Virus record (IMG/VR): IMGVR_UViG_2541047778_000015
Origin: a virus
Taxonomy: Duplodnaviria; Heunggongvirae; Uroviricota; Caudoviricetes
DNA: 40,861 nucleotides
Strand: one strand, 5' to 3'
A model generated the notes under the pieces. That model searched no databases. It was not told the origin of the DNA and worked only from the letters and a program-made list of their open reading frames with translations. Shown here in pieces: positions 3,369 to 35,292 of this stretch. The number at the start of each line of letters is the position of its first letter. The first letter of the stretch is position 1. A program made the translations under genes and the position numbers.

Positions 3369-3395
3369 CCCGCAAAATATTGCGGGCTTTTTTTT
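3369..3395 (+). terminator. Plus-strand intrinsic terminator (hairpin plus T8) overlapping the tailspike stop codon
   Basis: CCCGCAA-aata-TTGCGGG followed by TTTTTTTT on the plus strand; the minus-strand reading lacks a U-tract, so it does not terminate the tailspike transcript. Confidence 0.6.
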
Positions 3396-6300
3396 AACGT
3401 TCTTCCAGAGACTGAATCCGCTCTTTTATCTTATCCATTTCTCTGCGCTGCCATGCTGCCTCGATATAGAATAAGAGATCAGGTCTGACCCCCCATCTAG
3501 ATCCTGCTGGCGTTATTTCAACGCGCTCAATGATGTCTTCCATTACCATCACTGGATTATCATCCTCATCAACAATGATGCTCCCGTCATTATCAGTCAG
3601 CGGAATTTCCCTTTGGCCAGTAATGACGTCATCATATACTGCGGGATAATCGTCATAGCAAAGAAAGGCATAGCGGCATGTTGTGCTTTCTTCTTCCATG
3701 AGTCCGTGAGAAATAAGAACATCACGAAGTTGCTGCGCGATTACACCATGATGTATCCTCGCCCCTTCTTCCCCCTTTATAGCGACAGCGTTCAGCCATT
3801 TATAAGCGATATACCTGACGTCACCCCAGGCATCCAGCAATGCTTCGTCAGGAGAGACCGGCTCTGTCTTTAATGTTCCGTCACTGGTAACCACAGGATT
3901 GGAGCCAAGATAAACTGTCGAGAACCTGTTTCCCGGACCACCAAGAGCATTTACATTATCAAGATAAGGTTTAACATCTCCGTTCTCAAAAAGATGTTCG
4001 AGTGCGTTATATACCGCGCGACGTGGAGTACTGCTTCTGGAACCATGCAACGTTATCATTGCACCATCTGCTGAAGACGTTGTTTCACCGCCGCTAACGA
4101 TTAATCTCTGAGCGGTAACATCATCAGACGGTACTTTCTTCGCAATAATGGCGTAATTACCCTCAAGTTTGACTTCCGCGCGAACTTGTCCTGATGTACC
4201 TGCATGGACAGTCAGTGACTGGACGGCAACATCATCTGTGAAATCAACGGGTACAGGAACCGTCCTCACGCCTGACGTCGACATAAAAGTAGGAAGCGTT
4301 CTGTTAGGAGTGGCTCCGTAGACAAAATCCCTTGAAACAAATTCTTCCTGTTTAATTTTCACCCTGAAACAATACAAATCAGCCGGGTGACCATCGTGAA
4401 CATAAGGATATTTTCTGTTGTTATCCCCTATGCTCCATGGGTTTAGAAAGTCTTCCCCACCGAAAATGTAGTACAGCCAGTTGTCTTTGATACAAACTGA
4501 ACCAACACCAACCGCAGAGTTAACTATTCCGCCCTGATAAATCTGATCAGTAACATTAACCCACTCTACATTATCCAGACTCCACTCATTGACGTTAACT
4601 CTGGTCATAAATGTTCTTGGATAATTTCCTGCATAACGGTTATCAGGTTCTCCTCCTTCCCACTCACCAAATGCGCGCTCACTGCCAAAAATAATCAGCT
4701 CATCGCCAACTTTGGCAAAAGGAAGGTTTGAGTGATGAACATTATTTGGGAAGCGAAGAGAATTCCATGATGTACCTAAATCAGAGCTTCTGTGCAATGA
4801 ACTACCGGGTTGAGTACTTAATGTCCCCCTGGTCGTCAGATACAGAATGCCATCATAATATTTTACACATGGCTCAGATGCATTCGCCTCATATTCTGCA
4901 GGTATGCGTCTGCGAACAAAGCTACCAGGAGAACCGAAAGCATCAGAGAAATAGAGTATCCCAAGCTCGCGTGGACCAATATCACCATTATGGTAGCCAA
5001 CAGCAAAACTGTTATCGCTAATCGTCGCAAAACTGTGAATCTCAGTAACAGGAGTGCTTCCGTCAACAAAAGAAGGAATAGTTCCAAGACTGGTTTTTCT
5101 CCATGGTGACGAGTGAAATGATGTACCAAAACTCCAGTATCTACCCTCGTTATTCTGATCCACATCCTGGGTATTTTGCGTCGTAACTGTAAAAGTATTT
5201 TTATCAATAACAGTAGTCACCGTCATATTCCCGGTAACACCTGTAACACCAGAGTTTGAGAAGTTGACAAAATCACCAGCAAATAATCCGTGATCAGTAA
5301 TGCGAATATAAGCGACTTGCTGATTTGCTGCTTTCGTTATACCACCATAAACGCGAAGGCTGCGACTCATTGGGCGATCCCACAACTCTGCAACCTGCAG
5401 TTTATTTCCGCTCACGGTCCGCGTCTCAATTACAGCAAAAAGGCGATTTCTGACAACCCCCATACTCATGCAGTGATAGTTAACTGTGGGATAGTTTTCA
5501 TGTAAATCTGTAAGCCATTCCGGCGTTGTCCAGGTCTTCCCGTCATCTCCTGAGCGAACCCATGCAACATGGAGGTTATTTACACCATGGCGGTCTCCAG
5601 CCATAAAAGGCGCATAGATGACATTGTCATATACAAACGTTTTATCCTGCGTCCAGGCGTTGTACCACGGTGTATCTGTAATTTTAAATAACTCTCCCTG
5701 GATAAAATCTTCAGAAGCATAAAAAAGAGGCTGACCCGGTATTCTCTCAAATAAAAAACGAGCATTTTTAAATCGGCTGACATCCGGAAGAGTTGATACT
5801 TTAAAAGTAAGCCCTAATCCGTCAATTTTATAACCTGGAGATGAGGCTTCAAGGCACGCGCTTATTGCAGTGGAATCGTCATTTATACCATCACCAACAG
5901 CTCCAAAATCTTTGGGGCTAATAGCATCACGCATTTTATCCTGGAACGTTCGGTACACAGCCCCAGAACCATACTGAATAAACCAACCAAAACCACCAAC
6001 AACCCCGGCGATTGCAGCATCGACATAATTACGCATTGAGCGATTATTTACAGCGTCCTGTTCAAGTGATGGATCTGCAAGGTTAGAAATTTTGTTTTGC
6101 TTTGCATCGTAATATTTTGCAAGCAAAGATGGTTTCATCAATGCACGTCTGAACCACCCAAAACATTGCTGGATCAGCATCGTCAGGTAGTCAAAAGCAT
6201 CTTCATGCACTTCGGGGAAAAATTTTCCCTGATTGCGAAGGTCTGTCTCCTGCACTACATCAAGCACACGATCTATCGTAATTCGCCATCCAGCAGCAAG

Positions 6301-6513
6301 CGGCGACGGAAGAACAACAGAACCGCCACTATAAGTGCCCGCCCCAGTTACCGTATAACCGGTATCCAGTACTAGTTCTGTTACGTTACCGTTAAGGTCA
6401 GACACCTGAACAACCAGGTCGGATTTTTTGAAAATACGGAAGGTATACGGAAATGATGTCGTAACGCCGTTACCAGTGTATTCGTTGTGGTCAACTTCGG
6501 TTGAGACCGTCAT
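3394..6513 (-). CDS. Tailspike / tail fibre with predicted C-terminal intramolecular chaperone domain
   Basis: 1039 aa; N-terminus resembles the T7 gp17-type adaptor domain; two Asp-box-like motifs (SGDDGKTW, SSDLGTSW); C-terminal ~160 aa resemble the peptidase S74 chaperone domain, with S-x4-K at VVTSDGTLK. Confidence 0.8.
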   Translation of the reverse strand: MTVSTEVDHNEYTGNGVTTSFPYTFRIFKKSDLVVQVSDLNGNVTELVLDTGYTVTGAGTYSGGSVVLPSPLAAGWRITIDRVLDVVQETDLRNQGKFFPEVHEDAFDYLTMLIQQCFGWFRRALMKPSLLAKYYDAKQNKISNLADPSLEQDAVNNRSMRNYVDAAIAGVVGGFGWFIQYGSGAVYRTFQDKMRDAISPKDFGAVGDGINDDSTAISACLEASSPGYKIDGLGLTFKVSTLPDVSRFKNARFLFERIPGQPLFYASEDFIQGELFKITDTPWYNAWTQDKTFVYDNVIYAPFMAGDRHGVNNLHVAWVRSGDDGKTWTTPEWLTDLHENYPTVNYHCMSMGVVRNRLFAVIETRTVSGNKLQVAELWDRPMSRSLRVYGGITKAANQQVAYIRITDHGLFAGDFVNFSNSGVTGVTGNMTVTTVIDKNTFTVTTQNTQDVDQNNEGRYWSFGTSFHSSPWRKTSLGTIPSFVDGSTPVTEIHSFATISDNSFAVGYHNGDIGPRELGILYFSDAFGSPGSFVRRRIPAEYEANASEPCVKYYDGILYLTTRGTLSTQPGSSLHRSSDLGTSWNSLRFPNNVHHSNLPFAKVGDELIIFGSERAFGEWEGGEPDNRYAGNYPRTFMTRVNVNEWSLDNVEWVNVTDQIYQGGIVNSAVGVGSVCIKDNWLYYIFGGEDFLNPWSIGDNNRKYPYVHDGHPADLYCFRVKIKQEEFVSRDFVYGATPNRTLPTFMSTSGVRTVPVPVDFTDDVAVQSLTVHAGTSGQVRAEVKLEGNYAIIAKKVPSDDVTAQRLIVSGGETTSSADGAMITLHGSRSSTPRRAVYNALEHLFENGDVKPYLDNVNALGGPGNRFSTVYLGSNPVVTSDGTLKTEPVSPDEALLDAWGDVRYIAYKWLNAVAIKGEEGARIHHGVIAQQLRDVLISHGLMEEESTTCRYAFLCYDDYPAVYDDVITGQREIPLTDNDGSIIVDEDDNPVMVMEDIIERVEITPAGSRWGVRPDLLFYIEAAWQRREMDKIKERIQSLEER

Positions 6514-6616: not shown

Positions 6617-6633
6617 ATTACCTTTCGGGTAAT
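6617..6633. promoter_or_regulatory. Operator-like site ATTACC-tttcg-GGTAAT
   Basis: 17-bp palindrome of the recurring family; intergenic, between the tailspike start and the LexA box. Confidence 0.5.
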
Positions 6634-6669: not shown

Positions 6670-6689
6670 TACTGTATAAATATACAGTT
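6670..6689. promoter_or_regulatory. LexA (SOS) box
   Basis: TACTGTATAAATATACAGTT: CTGT-N8-ACAG with an AT-rich spacer, close to the consensus TACTGTATATATATACAGTA; lies 20 bp upstream of the 6709 start and overlaps a TATAAAT -10-like hexamer. Confidence 0.7.
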
Positions 6690-6708
6690 ATTGCATGGAG
6701 AAGATAAG

Positions 6709-6966
6709 ATGCAGCAGTATCACTATCCACTGGAAGACGGATTTACCGAAAGGATTCACACGCCGGGAGGCGTCAGATCACTGGTGGAGGGATCGCACTT
6801 GATGAAATTACTCCGGGATCTCGATAAGGATGGATTTAATGTCGATGGCCCACTTGCCGAACTGACTGCACTGATTAACTACGTCACCAGCTCACAGATG
6901 TCTATGCAGGATCTGCAAACACATCTCGACTATTGTGCCGAACAATTACGAAAACAAACCACATAA
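6709..6966 (+). CDS. Small protein homologous to the shared antirepressor C-terminal module (candidate SOS-inducible antirepressor)
   Basis: ATG at 6709 with GGAG 8 nt upstream (ORF track used TTG at 6691); the 85-aa product aligns with the C-termini of the 8112 and 10849 genes. Confidence 0.55.
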   Translation: MQQYHYPLEDGFTERIHTPGGVRSLVEGSHLMKLLRDLDKDGFNVDGPLAELTALINYVTSSQMSMQDLQTHLDYCAEQLRKQTT

Positions 6967-6990: not shown

Positions 6991-7716
6991 TCGTTTCGCT
7001 TTGTGCTCGTCCCAGCACGTTTTGCACCATGCCATTAAGCCGTCCGCATTTTGATTATTAGGGTAAAAGCTAGTTCGTTTTCTGCGGACATTACAAATTG
7101 GGCACCACTTCATATGGCGTGTATTCTTTGGGCCATCGAGACACCTTGCACACCACTTAGTCAATCCATCTGGATTTTTTGACGATTTCCTGAATTTTTC
7201 ATATGGAAGGTTTATTCTGCATCGCAAGCACTGCTTGCTACCACTTGAAACTCTGTTAGCTGATTCTTCTTTTGGCGGCGATACAGAAGGTATTCTTGCT
7301 GGCTCTGATACTGCCTGAGGTGCTTTTTTAGATGACTGAGACGATATGTCATCACCAGGGAATCTTCCATGATATGCCGGACGCGTTGACACTCCGGGTG
7401 GAAGCTCAGCTGTAAACGGCTTTGGCTGAATCAGTTGCCTCTCTTTTGCTAACTCCTGCTGTTTATAATATGTCTGGATTACCGCGCTATCATAAGCAGG
7501 AGGTACGGAAATATTAGGCGCATTATCTCCCGTTTTTTGAAACTGAGTGGAGGTGTGTTCTATCACCTGTGTACGATTAATCGTTATCTCCCCATCTTCA
7601 GTCTTTATCGTTTTGTTATGATTAACGACCGTACGATCAGAGATCTTAGTCTTGTTCTGGTTGATAACGTAAATAATCACCGCAACCACACCAACAACTA
7701 CCCAGAAAACTTCCAT
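6988..7716 (-). CDS. Membrane-anchored protein with tandem Cys-rich (zinc-ribbon-like) repeats, unknown function
   Basis: N-terminal TM helix (MEVFWVVVGVVAVIIYVI); C-terminal repeats SKNPDGLTKWCARC and NQNADGLMAWCKTC plus further CxxC pairs. Confidence 0.55.
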   Translation of the reverse strand: MEVFWVVVGVVAVIIYVINQNKTKISDRTVVNHNKTIKTEDGEITINRTQVIEHTSTQFQKTGDNAPNISVPPAYDSAVIQTYYKQQELAKERQLIQPKPFTAELPPGVSTRPAYHGRFPGDDISSQSSKKAPQAVSEPARIPSVSPPKEESANRVSSGSKQCLRCRINLPYEKFRKSSKNPDGLTKWCARCLDGPKNTRHMKWCPICNVRRKRTSFYPNNQNADGLMAWCKTCWDEHKAKR

Positions 7717-7735
7717 TGCCTTTCCTCACAATAAC

Positions 7736-7752
7736 ATTACCTTAAAGGTAAT
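7736..7752. promoter_or_regulatory. Operator-like site ATTACC-ttaaa-GGTAAT
   Basis: Perfect 6-bp arms; 20 bp upstream of the start of the 6988..7716 gene. Confidence 0.5.
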
Positions 7753-7800
7753 ATCTTGCTTTCAGGTGATCAAGCGTTAAACGCAATCAACCAAATACGG

Positions 7801-7845
7801 TTGATTTTAATATTTCTTCGCGTTTATCATTACCTTTGCGGTAAA
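7801..7845 (+). promoter_or_regulatory. Sigma70-like promoter with overlapping operator-like site
   Basis: TTGATT, 18-bp spacer, TATCAT, with ATTACC-tttgc-GGTAAA (7829..7845) overlapping the -10/+1 region. Confidence 0.5.
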
Positions 7846-7960
7846 TTTACATCGCACTCCTCTTGTGCCATAGTAATCGGGCACTGGCAAAATCCAGTGC
7901 CGGGATTGGTCTCCCGGATTACTACAGAGGCACATATGCCGCATAAGCGGTTTTTTTATG
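7838..7960 (+). ncRNA. Candidate structured small RNA or leader/attenuator upstream of the Bro-N antirepressor
   Basis: Outer helix AGTAATC/GATTACT encloses hairpins GGCACTGG-caaaat-CCAGTGCC and GGGA-ttggtc-TCCC; followed by GCCGC-ataa-GCGG plus T7. Confidence 0.4.
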
Positions 7961-8111
7961 TGTAAAGCGCACCTATTCTATGGTGGGCTGTGTGGGGGCA
8001 CCGAAAGGTGCGCCGGGTTCCTTTGTAGCCGGTAAGACCAACTCTGCACAGTTCACCACCATCTGATTGGTCTCAGCGGTGGTGATTAACCTAACTACAA
8101 AGGTGATCGCC

Positions 8112-8804
8112 ATGAATACCAAACCTTCCATCTTTTCCTTTGAGTCATCCTGCCAGATCCGTATGTTCATGATTGACGGAGAACCTTGGTTTGTCACCAA
8201 AGATGTGTGCAATGCTTTGAATATTGATGTTACACAAGCGAGAAAACTTGATAAAAAAGGCTGGAACAAAAAGGGGCTGTATTCAATACAGACCCCTGGT
8301 GGAATACAAGAACTATCCATCGTTTCAGAATCAGGTCTCTACATCCTTATTCTGCGTTGCAAAGAGGCAATGACTGAGGGAACGAGAGCATTCAGATTTC
8401 TTGAATGGGTTACAGGTGAGGTTCTTCCTCAGATCCGCCGCACCGGAAGTTACATTAAAAACTCGCTCCCGCAGGAAGAACGCATAAAGATGGTTGCCGA
8501 CCAGGTAGCCAACGCCACAGCATCAGCAGTGATGCAGGCAATGAAGATAGAGAACAAAACCTACAGTGCCCCACTGAAGCCCGGCTACCGCAGCCTGATT
8601 CATTCTCCGTCTGGTGTTCTCGGCCTGACGGAGAACTCATTGCTTATGAATCTGCTAAACCAGTTACAGGAAGACGGGCACGACGTATCGGGCGCGGCGG
8701 CGGAGCTGACCACCATGTTCTGCTACATCGTCGGTGTGAGCAAATGCCTGCGTGATATCCAGACCCACGCGGAGTACATCAACGACAAGGCAGGGTTCTT
8801 CTGA
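8112..8804 (+). CDS. Antirepressor with Bro-N/KilA-N-type N-domain and shared C-terminal module
   Basis: Start at MNTKPSIFSF (ATG 8112); the N-terminal segment IRMFMIDGEPWFVTKDVCNALNI is Bro-N-like; the last 77 aa are identical to the C-terminus of the 9911..10849 product. Confidence 0.7.
   Translation: MNTKPSIFSFESSCQIRMFMIDGEPWFVTKDVCNALNIDVTQARKLDKKGWNKKGLYSIQTPGGIQELSIVSESGLYILILRCKEAMTEGTRAFRFLEWVTGEVLPQIRRTGSYIKNSLPQEERIKMVADQVANATASAVMQAMKIENKTYSAPLKPGYRSLIHSPSGVLGLTENSLLMNLLNQLQEDGHDVSGAAAELTTMFCYIVGVSKCLRDIQTHAEYINDKAGFF
8571..8804 (+). repeat. Inverted-repeat copy A (codes the shared 77-aa C-terminal module)
   Basis: Reverse complement matches 9911..10144 with about a dozen single-base differences by hand alignment, all synonymous. 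Confidence 0.8.
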
Positions 8805-8841
8805 CGGGCGGTGGCACAGGGATGTGCCTTTAAAATAATCA

Positions 8842-8944: not shown

Positions 8945-9577
8945 ATGAAAACAAATACAACAAGAAAAGCGATGCCATACATTATCCCAGAAGCAGATTT
9001 CGACAGAAAACTGAACATGTCTGAGAAGAACACTAGTCACACCGAAAGCTACTTAGCGAAAGGTGTGGTTGATTTCGTTCTTCCGGGATTCACAACACCT
9101 TATGGTTATCGCCTTGTAAAATCTTGTAATGGCGATCATTACAGAATGATTACTACCAGCGATACTCCAGAAACGGTGTATGCGGTTAAGTTAATCTTTC
9201 GGGAAGATATCGTCGAAGCTAAAAGAACATGTACGCAGATCATGGTATGGCGTACGCCTAATGTTATTCATGACCGTGCTGTTCATGGTTTGCCTCAGAT
9301 TTTTTTTCAGTTCTTTCTAGAGCAATATGCGATCGTTGTATCTGATGAGCAACAAACAATCGATGGGAGAAGATTCTGGGAAAGAATGATTTCTTGGGCT
9401 ATAAACACCCCGGGATATAATGTATACGTTTCAGATGGCTCTGAAGAAGATAGACCTCTTAGCTTCATGACATCATGGGATGATTTCTATAGCCAGTGGG
9501 CTGATTTCTGTTGGGGCAGTGATAAAGATGTGCATACCCACAGACTACTGGTTATAAGCAAAGATAAACTGCATTAA
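8945..9577 (+). CDS. Hypothetical protein, accessory cargo
   Basis: 210-aa ORF with its own promoter-like region and downstream terminator; no family recognised. Confidence 0.55.
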   Translation: MKTNTTRKAMPYIIPEADFDRKLNMSEKNTSHTESYLAKGVVDFVLPGFTTPYGYRLVKSCNGDHYRMITTSDTPETVYAVKLIFREDIVEAKRTCTQIMVWRTPNVIHDRAVHGLPQIFFQFFLEQYAIVVSDEQQTIDGRRFWERMISWAINTPGYNVYVSDGSEEDRPLSFMTSWDDFYSQWADFCWGSDKDVHTHRLLVISKDKLH

Positions 9578-9860: not shown

Positions 9861-9910
9861 GTGACATGTCACGCTAGTTTCGTTTTGCACGTCCCTGTGC
9901 CGCCGTTCTG

Positions 9911-10144
9911 TCAGAAGAACCCTGCCTTGTCGTTGATGTATTCCGCGTGCGTCTGGATATCACGCAGGCATTTGCTCACACCAACGATGTAGCAGAACAT
10001 GGTGGTCAGCTCCGCCGCCGCGCCCGATACATCGTGCCCGTCTTCCTGTAACTGGTTCAGCAGATTCATCAGCAGTGAGTTCTCCGTCAGGCCGAGAACA
10101 CCCGACGGCGAATGAATCAGACTGCGGTAGCCTGGCTTCAATGG
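9911..10144 (-). repeat. Inverted-repeat copy B (codes the shared 77-aa C-terminal module)
   Basis: See copy A at 8571..8804. Confidence 0.8.
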
Positions 10145-10849
10145 ATAACCATAACATTTTGTCTGTGTTTTAATTGCCTCACGAAGCGCATCTAACATCT
10201 TGACTGCCACTTCATCATTCTCTGATGCAGATCCAGCAGGGAGATACTCCCCTTCAAGCGGAACCCGAGCAACAAGAGACAACGCTTCGGCAAATTGATC
10301 TTCACCAATTTCTTTGTACGAACAGCCAAAATGAGATTTCAGTGACGACCACATGGTGATCATCGCCTTAGCCTGTTTTTCTTTTGGCAGAGACTGACCG
10401 CGACTCATGACGAGTTGTTTAATGGCTTCCTGCTGTTCAGTTGTTATTTTACCCGGCAACGCCTTTTTAGCTTTGCGTGGGTTAACCACATGGCCTTTAG
10501 TCCAGTACTCGTAGAGCACATCGTCACACTCTTCCTGATACTGGATTACCTTGTCGCGGATTTCAGGGCGGACTTTGTTAGGGCTGATGCTGTTCAACCA
10601 AGCTGCCAATTTTCGTAAAGCCATACAAATCATGGCTTGCACCCCACCGGCAGAAGGTATGGTGATTTCCACCATACCCTTCGAGAAGCGTTGAGAAATC
10701 TTCTTATGTTGAGATTTCCAGTCTAGCCCCATTCCCTCAACGATAGGTTTCATTGGGGTATACGGTTCGCCGTTGTGATTGACAACATAAAGCTCTGCGC
10801 CGTGGAATGGCACGTTGATAGTAGATACTGCTGTTGCTATACTCGTCAT
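9911..10849 (-). CDS. Antirepressor with P22 Ant-type N-domain and shared C-terminal module
   Basis: N-terminus YVVNHNGEPYTPMKPIVEGMGLDWKSQHKKI resembles the P22-type antirepressor N-domain; last 77 aa identical to the 8112..8804 product; sits downstream of an Arc-like gene as in P22 immI. Confidence 0.7.
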   Translation of the reverse strand: MTSIATAVSTINVPFHGAELYVVNHNGEPYTPMKPIVEGMGLDWKSQHKKISQRFSKGMVEITIPSAGGVQAMICMALRKLAAWLNSISPNKVRPEIRDKVIQYQEECDDVLYEYWTKGHVVNPRKAKKALPGKITTEQQEAIKQLVMSRGQSLPKEKQAKAMITMWSSLKSHFGCSYKEIGEDQFAEALSLVARVPLEGEYLPAGSASENDEVAVKMLDALREAIKTQTKCYGYPLKPGYRSLIHSPSGVLGLTENSLLMNLLNQLQEDGHDVSGAAAELTTMFCYIVGVSKCLRDIQTHAEYINDKAGFF

Positions 10850-10898
10850 GTCGTTAATTCCTATACGTAGTTTTACGATACTGAAGCCCTGACGGTCT

Positions 10899-10912
10899 GG
10901 CCACCGTGGGGC
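10899..10912. promoter_or_regulatory. Mnt-operator-like near-palindrome (GGCCACCGTGGGGC)
   Basis: Contains CCACGGTGG on the opposite strand, the core I recall from the P22 mnt operator; second copy at 11104..11118. Confidence 0.4.
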
Positions 10913-10921
10913 TTCGCTGTT

Positions 10922-11089
10922 TTATGCCACGCTATTCTTCTCACCAGTGAGTCCATACACTTTCCTCAGCTGATAGATAATCTCTGTATTGAACTTTCGG
11001 CATTCTTTTTCGCCATTTCTTTCAATAGCTAACTTCACATCGTCCGGAAAACGAACTCGTCGTTGACACATCTCTTTTGCTTTTTGCAT
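10922..11089 (-). CDS. Arc-like ribbon-helix-helix repressor
   Basis: Start at MQKAKEM with AGGAG 7 nt upstream (ORF track used GTG at 11110); RVRFPDDVKLAIERNGEKECRKFNTEIIYQL parallels the P22 Arc RHH region. Confidence 0.6.
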   Translation of the reverse strand: MQKAKEMCQRRVRFPDDVKLAIERNGEKECRKFNTEIIYQLRKVYGLTGEKNSVA

Positions 11090-11103
11090 TTCATATCTCC
11101 TTA

Positions 11104-11118
11104 GCCCCACCGTGGGGC
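11104..11118. promoter_or_regulatory. Mnt-operator-like near-palindrome (GCCCCACCGTGGGGC) in the arc/ant promoter region
   Basis: Perfect outer arms GCCCCA/TGGGGC; lies between the divergent mnt-like and arc-like genes; related CACACCGTG and CACACGGTG elements at 11130..11163. Confidence 0.45.
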
Positions 11119-11209
11119 AAAATAATTGTCACACCGTGCGTCATTGATGTCAAGCACACGGTGAGGCATACTTCAATCATTGCAAGTAACTCAATATTTG
11201 GTGAAGAAC

Positions 11210-11641
11210 ATGAGCAGAGAAGATCCACAACTAAGGATCAGACTTCCCGTCGAAGTAAAAGAAAAAATAGAAATTTCTGCAAAAGCCAATAAGCGATCAA
11301 TGAACGCTGAAATAGTACAACGTCTTGACACCAGCTTTCTGAAAGATATTCATGAAGATGACGTAATTTCTGCTTATGAAGCAAAAATCATTGCAAACAA
11401 TGCACGACATGAAATATCAAATATTATTTTCAAAAGAACCTTTAATGAAATTAATAAGAAAATAACACTTGGACATACAAGTTTTTATATAAACCTTAAT
11501 GACCTTGAACTGGAATCACTTGCAGATAATGATTACCAGATCATCTTTGAAAAAACATTTAATAGGCTCAATGAACTAGGTTACATCATCTGTGAAAACT
11601 CATGGGATGCAGATGGTTTTGGAATTGAAATACCTGAATAG
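11210..11641 (+). CDS. Mnt-like ribbon-helix-helix repressor with C-terminal extension
   Basis: MSREDPQLRIRLPVEVKEKIEISAKANKRSMNAEIVQRL parallels the P22 Mnt N-terminus as recalled; 143 aa, longer than the Mnt I recall. Confidence 0.65.
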   Translation: MSREDPQLRIRLPVEVKEKIEISAKANKRSMNAEIVQRLDTSFLKDIHEDDVISAYEAKIIANNARHEISNIIFKRTFNEINKKITLGHTSFYINLNDLELESLADNDYQIIFEKTFNRLNELGYIICENSWDADGFGIEIPE

Positions 11642-27355: not shown

Positions 27356-27432
27356 GTGGCATTAGCTCAGTCGGACAGAGCAACCGCCTTCTAAGCGGTT
27401 GGTCGCAGGTTCGAATCCTGCATGCCACGCCA
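27356..27432 (+). tRNA. tRNA-Arg (anticodon UCU)
   Basis: Hand-folded cloverleaf: acceptor GTGGCAT/ATGCCAC, D-stem GCTC/GAGC, anticodon stem ACCGC/GCGGT with loop CTTCTAA, T-arm GCAGG-TTCGAAT-CCTGC, 3' CCA encoded. Confidence 0.8.
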
Positions 27433-34707: not shown

Positions 34708-35292
34708 ATGAAAAGTATCCAGGACGTCCGCAGGCAAAATCTCAACGACTTGATCGACCGTGAATTCAATGGTGTTCAGACGCGGATGGCAGAAAAACTT
34801 GGAACTCAGGCAAATCTGGTAAACCGCTGGGCTCTTGGCAAGAAGGTTATCGGCGACCAGGTTGCGCGAAAAATTGAAGCTGCCGCCAATAAACCCCGTA
34901 ACTGGCTTGATATCGATCGCTCGCTTTCTCAGGAAGGTTTTCAGCCTGTCGGCCCAAGCGACATTGGTCAGCTGGCGGCTCACAACCTGGAACGCTGGAT
35001 GAGCGAAAGCCGCGACCTTTCAACACAGGGAAAACTTCACCGCGCATCCGGCGTCGCCCAGGTGACAATCAGCCGCCTGTTAAACAATGAGGTCAGCGTT
35101 TCCATTTCCACCCTGGAGAATGTTGCATCCGCATTCGGGCGTCACGGCTATGAATTACTGATTCACCCGCACGACCCTGCGACTATCAACTATGACCGCT
35201 CGCGCTACGCATTGTTACCCGAAACCGAGAAAGCAAAGATCGAAAGTTACATTGAATTTGTCATCAACCAGAACGAAAAAAACAAACAATAA
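34708..35292 (+). CDS. Prophage repressor with two HTH-like regions and no S24 autocleavage domain
   Basis: 194 aa; HTH-like segments near residues 24-46 and 110-145; no Ala-Gly / Ser-Lys peptidase region seen; divergent from cro. Confidence 0.65.
   Translation: MKSIQDVRRQNLNDLIDREFNGVQTRMAEKLGTQANLVNRWALGKKVIGDQVARKIEAAANKPRNWLDIDRSLSQEGFQPVGPSDIGQLAAHNLERWMSESRDLSTQGKLHRASGVAQVTISRLLNNEVSVSISTLENVASAFGRHGYELLIHPHDPATINYDRSRYALLPETEKAKIESYIEFVINQNEKNKQ

Follow-up and report, generated by a model that had tools for sequence, protein, structure and literature searches.

An IsrK-type small RNA and a C4 antisense RNA upstream of a Bro-N antirepressor gene as a putative RNA switch of the P1/P7 immI type

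The DNA analysed here, a 40,861-nucleotide Caudoviricetes record (IMGVR_UViG_2541047778_000015, referred to below as the window), carries on its plus strand at positions 7881-7957 a structured RNA that, judged by its covariance match, is a typical member of the known prophage small-RNA family IsrK. We consider it likely, with a probability of roughly 70%, that this element is the 5' part of an RNA switch of the phage P1/P7 immI type controlling an antirepressor, in which the terminated IsrK RNA would act as a decoy for the C4 antisense RNA and the read-through RNA would supply both C4 and the ant mRNA. The true unit extends from 7846 to 7957, and the functional module continues to position 8112. 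Since the curated threshold of the Rfam isrK family was passed, the element is not novel: it is already known from a curated Rfam family, a detailed experimental paper and classical relatives in P1 and P7.

The IsrK element, its promoter and its terminator

The whole window was searched against Rfam with covariance models, the check proposed in an earlier note made from the sequence, and four matches scored above threshold. The isrK model (RF01394) matched positions 7881-7957 with 74.7 bits against a gathering score of 50 and was covered from model position 1 to 77 of 77, while the C4 antisense RNA model (RF01695) matched 7976-8063 at full length with 78.6 bits against a gathering score of 45. 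The remaining two were a tRNA (27356-27429) and a sar RNA (10851-10918). The isrK and C4 matches are adjacent, lying no more than 19 nt apart, and no isrJ was found downstream in the window with Rfam. A tRNA or tmRNA identity was rejected, as ARAGORN returned only the tRNA-Arg at 27356.

In a permissive search, the family c4-a1b1 (RF03163, "a1, b1 targets of C4 antisense RNA") was also recovered at 7868-7920 with 39.9 bits, under its threshold of 46.7. Homologous loci were then scanned with Rfam and isrK was present in all 19, with C4 directly downstream in 18; in the nineteenth, which gave no C4 call, the isrK match sits at the locus edge. Six loci passed the isrK and c4-a1b1 thresholds on the same bases, which indicates that the two models describe one element. 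An explicit equation of IsrK with a1/b1 was found in no paper of the literature searched, which is not proof of its absence.

A promoter scan over 2.2 kb returned five promoter-like sites compared with 3.4 +/- 1.9 in shuffled sequences. The earlier note had described TTGATT-N18-TATCAT as a good promoter; this sequence is indeed present on the plus strand at 7801-7830 with 9 of 12 matches, but, given the scan counts, such a match is not above chance, and its hexamers vary in 28 sequences from the same phage clade. It was thus rejected as the main promoter and would be at best a secondary, operator-overlapped one. The scan also listed TTTACA-17-CATAGT with an upstream TG at 7846-7874 of the plus strand, here taken as the putative sigma-70 promoter of the IsrK-C4-ant transcript (-35 box TTTACA at 7846-7851, TG at 7866-7867, -10 box CATAGT at 7869-7874). 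Both TTTACA (7846-7851) and TGnCATAGT (7866-7874) were kept at 90% or more in the 28 clade sequences, in which the segments retained at this level were the half-sites of a palindrome, ATTTAC, TGnGCCA-AGT and the hairpin. Among 91 homologues, the TTTACA/CATAGT pair of the window aligned with TTGACA/TATATT at a spacer of 17, and the -10 positions A2 and T6 were invariant.

The conserved extended -10 box ends 6 nt 5' of position 7881. Transcription of IsrK would start at about this position from TTTACA-17-TGnCATAGT, which is also where the Rfam isrK model and the mapped Gifsy-1 IsrK begin. No SOS box occurs near 7700-8112, the sole good one being located at 6672-6687 before another gene, and LexA control of the unit was rejected on this basis.

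The -35 box is abutted by the palindrome TTACC-N5-GGTAA, which reads TTACCTTTGCGGTAA at 7830-7844 and has its centre some 44 bp in front of the inferred start. The operator-like site of the earlier note proved to be real, as the window holds 11 perfect copies of the palindrome (15 with at most one mismatch) versus 0.49 expected. Its half-sites were conserved at 90% or more in the 28 clade relatives and its centre was variable. Copies are found upstream of a minus-strand gene ending at 7716, at the IsrK promoter and before a gene at 8945, and are paired on both flanks of an HTH_3 repressor-like gene (34708-35292). The dispersal of the 11 copies and their flanking of the HTH_3 gene suggest an operator of the prophage's main repressor, scattered like the C1 operators of P1, which occupy 22 dispersed sites (PMC8546580). 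At the IsrK promoter, either repression or activation by this candidate operator is conceivable.

The minimum-free-energy fold of 7838-7958 reached -48.5 kcal/mol (z = -5.6), which was not equalled by any of 200 shuffles, so that the comparison with shuffled controls, set beforehand, came out in favour of a structured RNA; the 78-nt RNA by itself gave z = -2.7. The fold holds an outer helix (7871-7878/7917-7924) and 8-bp, 4-bp and 5-bp GC hairpins, and in this respect all the helices described earlier are present in it. In a 91-sequence alignment, the three IsrK hairpins were 93.4% paired, with compensatory changes in six of the seven pairs of hairpin 1, whereas the outer helices were 54.9% paired across homologues compared with 52.1% in shuffles. 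Moreover, the 5' strand of the outer helix falls on the conserved -10 box and would therefore not be transcribed. The outer helix and a further GUGCC/GGCAC extension were rejected on their pair counts.

The RNA defined by the Rfam match and the covarying hairpins consists of hairpin 1 (7881-7900, loop CAAAAUC), hairpin 2 (7901-7916), a single-stranded linker and an intrinsic terminator. The GC hairpin with T7 that had been read as a terminator was confirmed as a 5-bp GC hairpin at 7938-7951 followed by U7 at 7951-7957, and the positions of the T run are invariant in the 91 sequences. A transcript of about 120 nt had been expected; the conserved promoter and the isrK model would instead give about 77 nt from about 7881. 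A lower stem, formed by CACAUA (7931-7936) and UAUGUG (7957-7962), encloses the terminator hairpin and the U tract. It reached at least 6 bp in 77 of 94 own-locus versus 588 of 1786 cross-locus comparisons, is present in the predicted fold of 7881-8125 and is visible in P7 too; it can form only once the terminator has been read through.

The loop CAAAAUC of hairpin 1 pairs with nothing found in the module. In the homologous loci it was fixed by the search pattern used to retrieve them, but it is also near-identical in the Rfam consensus and in P7 (CAAAUUC).

The C4 RNA, its complementary sites and their co-variation

The C4 RNA lies on the plus strand at 7976-8063, and by homology with the annotated P7 c4 its mature form would span about 7982-8060. 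In its predicted fold, a long closing stem carries two hairpins, a small one and one with a 12-nt loop, together with a 3' single-stranded stretch; the ends of C4 are marked by a conserved 5' junction between AU and GG and by a 3' CCACC. We named the pairing sites a1/b1 in IsrK, a'/b' in C4 and a2/b2 in the leader, following the site order of the P1 nomenclature; in the GenBank record of APSE-7 the primes are used in the reverse sense.

The C4 segment a' (AGACCAA, 8035-8041) is the exact complement of TTGGTCT at two places on the same strand, namely a1 (UUGGUCU, 7906-7912), located in the loop of hairpin 2, and a2 (UUGGUCU, 8067-8073), the putative downstream target of a'. The second antisense segment is the C4 loop b' (CCUUUGUAG, 8020-8028). 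This loop, CCTTTGTAG, is the exact complement of CTACAAAGG at 8095-8103, where b2 (CUACAAAGG) forms a perfect 9-nt match and overlaps the AAGG Shine-Dalgarno sequence of ant, 9 nt before its ATG at 8112. The same loop matches CTACAGAGG at 7922-7930 with one G.U pair, thus defining b1 (CUACAGAGG) in the IsrK linker. When 7881-8125 is folded, a1/b1 are predicted to pair with a'/b', which supports pairing in cis. A further leader motif, GGUGGUGA (8078-8085), complements UCACCACC (8053-8060), the 3' strand of the closing stem of C4, and recurs in most homologous leaders; a hairpin between the two would display a2 in its loop, presumably its function.

The gene at the end of this leader, the putative regulated output of the module, encodes a Bro-N antirepressor (8112-8804, plus strand; Pfam Bro-N E = 1.8e-13) and its start is identical to that of the RefSeq CDS. 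RefSeq shows a 395-bp gap in front of the BRO-N gene with nothing annotated in it, and no annotated gene overlaps the unit. This gap holds two RNAs that probably determine whether the antirepressor of the prophage is made. The idea that the unit upstream of Bro-N controls the antirepressor is partly supported, but the original reading had missed C4 at 7976-8063 and the four complementary sites. The window also contains the sar RNA at 10851-10918 with an ant gene at 9911-10849. A homologous leader precedes the Bro-N gene ORF4 of the related podovirus ZX5, and overexpression of ORF4 in phage ZX5 lowers lysogeny (PMC9782041).

A reading frame runs through C4 from an ATG at 7980 for 28 codons, lacks a Shine-Dalgarno sequence and has its stop codon at 8064-8066, which leaves 45 nt to the ant ATG. 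Among 97 loci, the length of this frame ranges from 3 to more than 70 codons and only in 8 does it overlap the antirepressor start. A coding role for it, as an analogue of the "orf45" of Gifsy-1, was rejected since neither its length nor its end point is conserved. Between 8064 and 8112, where P1/P7 carry icd, no frame is open, and the next gene is ant itself.

To follow the pairing sites across loci, viral sequences were searched with a pattern derived from the invariant IsrK segment; 120 viral contigs were retrieved, from which 102 unique sequences were extracted. In 98 of the 102, the 7-mer of hairpin 2 is followed after about 150 nt by its reverse complement and then, some 32 nt beyond that, by a second copy of itself. 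This 7-mer occurs in seven to eight variants, which change together at all three places; in two near-identical relatives of the window (L013 and L036), for instance, TTGGCGT replaces TTGGTCT at each of them. The C4 loop is more diverse, with 57 different sequences among 97 loci, each of which fits the b1 and b2 of its own locus but not those found elsewhere. When the C4 loop was compared with b2, uninterrupted Watson-Crick pairing over at least 7 positions was seen in 76 of 97 own-locus versus 31 of 1940 cross-locus comparisons. For b1 the corresponding values were 86 of 97 within loci, with G.U pairs allowed, and 14 of 1940 across loci, counting Watson-Crick pairs only. The short RNA is thus complementary to the downstream "orf45"/C4 region of its own read-through mRNA, and this complementarity co-varies across loci.

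Relation to Gifsy-1, P1/P7 and other antirepressor systems

The closest experimental counterpart is IsrK of the Salmonella prophage Gifsy-1 (Hershko-Shalev et al. 2016, PMC4825925). Part of the Gifsy-1 IsrK transcripts read through the terminator into "orf45", the antirepressor gene anrP and isrJ, and the element is both a terminated small RNA and the 5' part of the antirepressor mRNA. The long RNA is translationally silent, and short IsrK supplied in trans raised anrP translation 139-fold. The IsrK changes G28A and G31A were compensated by C162U and C159U in orf45, and the authors attributed activation to orf45 translation coupled to that of anrP. Co-expression of the C4 region did not relieve the toxicity of IsrK. 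The authors also reported a stable processed RNA at orf45, STnc1160, likened the system to P4 CI/seqA and called IsrK a structural homologue of P4 SeqA (PMC4825925).

The published positions were located on one of our loci, L004, a Gifsy-like locus with isrJ downstream. When the first base of hairpin 1 is counted as position 1, C18, G28 and G31 fall where expected, and the ACGCCAA of this locus occupies 158-164, so that G28:C162 and G31:C159 fall on a1:a'. The conserved AUGG of the C4 5' stem is found at 107, which is the first AUG of orf45 (A107), and a 45-codon frame starting there overlaps the next ATG. By this numbering, the published helix b-I should correspond to the a1:a' pairing and the Gifsy-1 orf45 to the C4 RNA.

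The element of the window resembles Gifsy-1 IsrK in its above-threshold full-length match, its three hairpins and its promoter-to-hairpin distance, and in what lies downstream, first a C4-like RNA (STnc1160, which had been taken for "orf45" in Gifsy-1) and then an antirepressor. The two differ in their specificity sequences, UUGGCGU with another loop in Gifsy-1 compared with UUGGUCU and CUACARAGG here. The window also lacks both isrJ and the 45-codon frame overlapping the antirepressor start; since the C4 frame ends 45 nt before the ant ATG, translational coupling is impossible here. Finally, its promoter has a putative repressor-type operator beside it and the phage is podovirus-like, not lambdoid.

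According to Citron and Schuster (1990), the immI operon of P1 and P7 reportedly has the order a1/b1 - c4 - a2/b2 - icd - ant. C4 is a repressor in P1/P7, is released there by RNase P, and has icd translation as its direct target. On the P7 record we found a C1 operator, a promoter, the a1/b1 hairpins, a terminator-like hairpin, c4, a2/b2 and the first gene in this order. The P7 promoter, TTGACC-17-TATAGT, ends 7 bases before hairpin 1, and the two hairpins score 55.5 bits with c4-a1b1 and 43.7 bits, below threshold, with isrK. The P7 c4 is annotated from the GG after AU, and UUUAGCAG and GAUUGUG are repeated before icd.

The module of the window thus shares with P1/P7 immI the order of its elements and a C4 fold with two exposed antisense segments. 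Target copies lie both up- and downstream of C4 in the two systems, the downstream one covering a ribosome-binding site; a repressor operator, in the window a candidate one, stands upstream of the promoter, and a terminator-like hairpin with the lower stem precedes c4. In contrast to P1/P7, the window has no icd, its b2 covers the Shine-Dalgarno sequence of ant itself and its Ant is a Bro-N protein. Its terminator has a full U7, whereas P7 has UAUUUUUG and gave no terminator call, and the model scores are reversed, c4-a1b1 falling below threshold in the window and isrK below threshold on P7. For the background of the C4 system we refer to PMC7313666, in which the same RNA pair is already annotated in APSE phages.

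The CI RNA of P4 is likewise a processed antisense RNA lying between complementary copies (seqA and seqC) in the same transcript; by description, it differs in acting through premature transcription termination and not by covering the ribosome-binding site of an antirepressor. The immI region of P22 (sar/arc/mnt/ant; RF00262) also places an antirepressor under RNA control, and a copy of sar is present in the window. However, sar is a true cis-antisense RNA made from the opposite strand, lacks a decoy element and belongs to an unrelated family.

Proposed mechanism, alternative explanations and significance

Taken together, these comparisons are consistent with the following mechanism. The promoter at 7846-7874, its -35 box abutted by the TTACC-N5-GGTAA-type operator, would fire from a start at about 7881. 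Part of the transcripts would stop at the hairpin and U7 (7938-7957), yielding the 77-nt IsrK-type small RNA, and the remaining ones would read through into C4 (about 7982-8060), the short leader and the Bro-N ant gene. C4 would be freed by processing, as by RNase P in P1/P7, and would pair with a2 (8067-8073) and b2 (8095-8103), covering the ant ribosome-binding site and keeping Ant off in the lysogen. Cleavage by RNase P between AU and GG would also remove the start codon of the C4 frame. IsrK may mimic both targets, through a1 in its second hairpin loop and b1 in the linker, and pair with the C4 segments both in cis, within the read-through transcript, and in trans, as the free short RNA. 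Such a decoy would withdraw C4 from the ant mRNA and so allow Ant synthesis and prophage induction, the switch being set by the balance of termination and read-through and by promoter activity.

The present data show the family membership, the complementarities with their co-variation, and the conservation of promoter, hairpins and terminator; the in vivo behaviour in this prophage, namely start, termination efficiency and C4 processing, we infer by analogy. The decoy reading is our own reinterpretation of the activation described in Gifsy-1 and would be consistent with its 139-fold magnitude. Two observations speak against this account: the c4-a1b1 score below threshold, and the failure of C4 co-expression to relieve IsrK toxicity in Gifsy-1. 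As a read-through transcript would carry decoy, C4 and target in a 1:1:1 ratio, repression would need unequal stabilities or affinities, and the model assumes that in the lysogen C4 is longer-lived than IsrK or wins the competition with it. The earlier note had left a choice between a terminator/antiterminator leader and an independent small RNA. The homologous Gifsy-1 element has experimentally been found to be both a leader and a small RNA; the part that probably does not hold is the classical terminator/antiterminator leader.

Among the alternatives, an attenuator acting only in cis survives best, although we regard it as unlikely. In a manner similar to P4 CI/seqA, binding of C4 to a1/b1 would alter termination at 7938-7957 and autoregulate read-through into c4-ant, and the short RNA would be a by-product. 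The position of b1 (7922-7930), directly 5' of the terminator and the lower stem, would suit such a feedback, the terminator and its U tract are conserved in 91 homologues, and the idea was raised by the Gifsy-1 authors with their view of IsrK as a structural homologue of P4 SeqA (PMC4825925). However, activation of anrP by IsrK in trans shows that the short RNA is active in Gifsy-1. In addition, a non-exhaustive search found no conserved antiterminator pairing, the sole candidate being the outer helix, which is not conserved, and the conserved lower stem lengthens the terminator instead of competing with it. The two ideas can coexist, and a P4-like feedback of C4 on termination, itself conceivable, is compatible with the decoy model.

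It is less probable still that the element is an Hfq-dependent prophage small RNA in its own right, directed mainly at host mRNAs and only by accident placed upstream of ant. In its favour, the Rfam family bears the name "isrK Hfq binding RNA", and the invariant hairpin-1 loop CAAAAUC is partnerless in the module. Against this, a1/b1 co-vary with C4 and the ant leader in about 100 loci and a C4 lies behind isrK in 18 of 19 loci, so this linkage is not a matter of chance, and host targets could only come in addition.

The version given in the earlier note, an RNA of about 120 nt starting near 7837 from TTGATT-N18-TATCAT with an outer helix around both hairpins, appears very improbable. The high stability of the longer fold speaks for it, as does the operator, which would sit at +1 of that promoter, and P1 is reported to have tandem immI promoters, one of them repressor-controlled. 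These points are outweighed by the lack of conservation of the hexamers, by an outer helix paired scarcely more often than in shuffled controls, with its 5' arm in the conserved -10 box, and by the Gifsy-1 start, which maps to hairpin 1. A small protein gene can practically be dismissed: a 69-codon TTG frame (7756-7965, plus strand) and a 45-codon frame (7807-7944, minus strand) are both open, but neither is in RefSeq, the former crosses promoter and terminator, and conservation follows base pairs and not codons, in agreement with the initial impression that the unit holds no convincing coding frame.

Returning to the decoy reading, a wider proposal can be put forward tentatively, at slightly less than even odds. 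IsrK would be the "a1/b1" of c4 and orf45 would be C4, with the short RNA serving as a general anti-antisense decoy in an RNA-only switch that has two co-varying specificity sequences and dozens of alleles. In the window, this switch would be wired to the main repressor through the operator at about -44, and its antirepressor would be one of three differently controlled antirepressors sharing one C-terminal domain. Related sequence was found in 225 phage records and in 482 of 5426 complete E. coli genomes, 119 of the 482 containing at least 80% of the 431-bp query.

The practical value of these results lies in the annotation of the gap upstream of the BRO-N gene that is empty in RefSeq. The regulatory RNA itself is an ordinary one that databases recognise, whereas the unity of IsrK, c4-a1b1 and orf45 as one module may be under-appreciated: the comparative data suggest that IsrK, c4-a1b1 and "orf45"/STnc1160 are parts of a P1-type c4 module. 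That its specificity sequences diversify freely is seen in the 57 loop variants and is relevant to heteroimmunity among related prophages.

Antirepressor genes and a second immunity-like module

The P1-like module, formed by the terminated small RNA IsrK, the antisense RNA C4 and the Bro-N antirepressor gene ant, is adjoined by a P22 immI-like module at 9911-11641. The latter comprises its own ant gene (9911-10849, minus strand), a sar RNA (10851-10918, plus strand; Rfam, 44.8 bits) that is antisense to the start region of this gene, an Arc-like frame of 62 residues (10922-11110, minus strand) and a Mnt-like frame (about 11210-11641, plus strand). The two antirepressor genes, of the Bro-N type (8112-8804) and the P22_AR_N type (9911-10849), are convergent and their C-terminal domains are encoded by a 270-nt inverted repeat with 90% complementary arms (8536-8805 and 9910-10179). 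These domains share 84% identity over 101 residues, whereas the N-terminal domains are unrelated.

The same C-terminal domain is common to three antirepressor-like genes inside 4 kb of the window. A 91-codon frame (6691-6966, plus strand) encodes a product showing 42% identity over 74 residues with the Bro-N antirepressor C-terminal domain, and a perfect LexA-box-like palindrome, CTGTATAAATATACAG (6672-6687), lies directly 5' of it. This frame may represent a small antirepressor under SOS control.

Operator-like palindromes and neighboring features

The palindrome TTACC-N5-GGTAA occurred in 11 perfect copies in the window (6618, 7737, 7830, 8871, 27019, 30184, 32289, 32351, 34638, 35350 and 35412), against 0.49 expected, with four further copies carrying one mismatch. 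The majority are intergenic, and pairs were found on both flanks of a HTH_3 repressor-like gene (34708-35292). Such an arrangement resembles a set of scattered operators comparable to those of C1 in phage P1. The copy at 6618 is located near the LexA-box-like palindrome and the 91-codon frame.

An 8-bp inverted repeat, AATCAACC...GGTTGATT (7785-7806), was picked up by the terminator scan between a minus-strand gene and the IsrK promoter. Its T tract is poor and it overlaps the -35 hexamer (TTGATT) of the promoter earlier proposed at 7801-7830.

Further upstream, a 1039-residue frame (3394-6513, minus strand) bears a conserved podovirus-type tail-fibre N-terminus; its product, at a guess, may resemble an endosialidase-like tailspike. 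One E. coli host with an identical region has serotype O2:K1:H7.

Phage P7 and related viral loci

In phage P7 (L123, 1476-1600), the a1/b1 element closes with a terminator-like hairpin (CCGCAG...UGCGG) carrying a lower stem CGGACA/UGUCCG and followed by UAUUUUUG. The element matched the Rfam isrK model over its full length at 43.7 bits, under threshold. Hairpin, lower stem and full-length match suggest that an IsrK-like short RNA may also be made from P7 immI.

Two Rfam matches in related viral contigs were unconnected with the IsrK-C4 module: a type II hammerhead ribozyme in L011 (7644-7710; 65.6 bits), and sRNA-Xcc1 between C4 and isrJ, which in Gifsy-1 lies downstream of the antirepressor, in the Gifsy-like locus L005 (1373-1456; 80.3 bits).

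A single viral contig, L041, contains two IsrK-C4 modules, at 3964 and 7226, 3.3 kb apart. Both share the a site TTGGCGT and differ in their C4 loops and b sites; with these differences, one genome would hold two switches, each with its own specificity.
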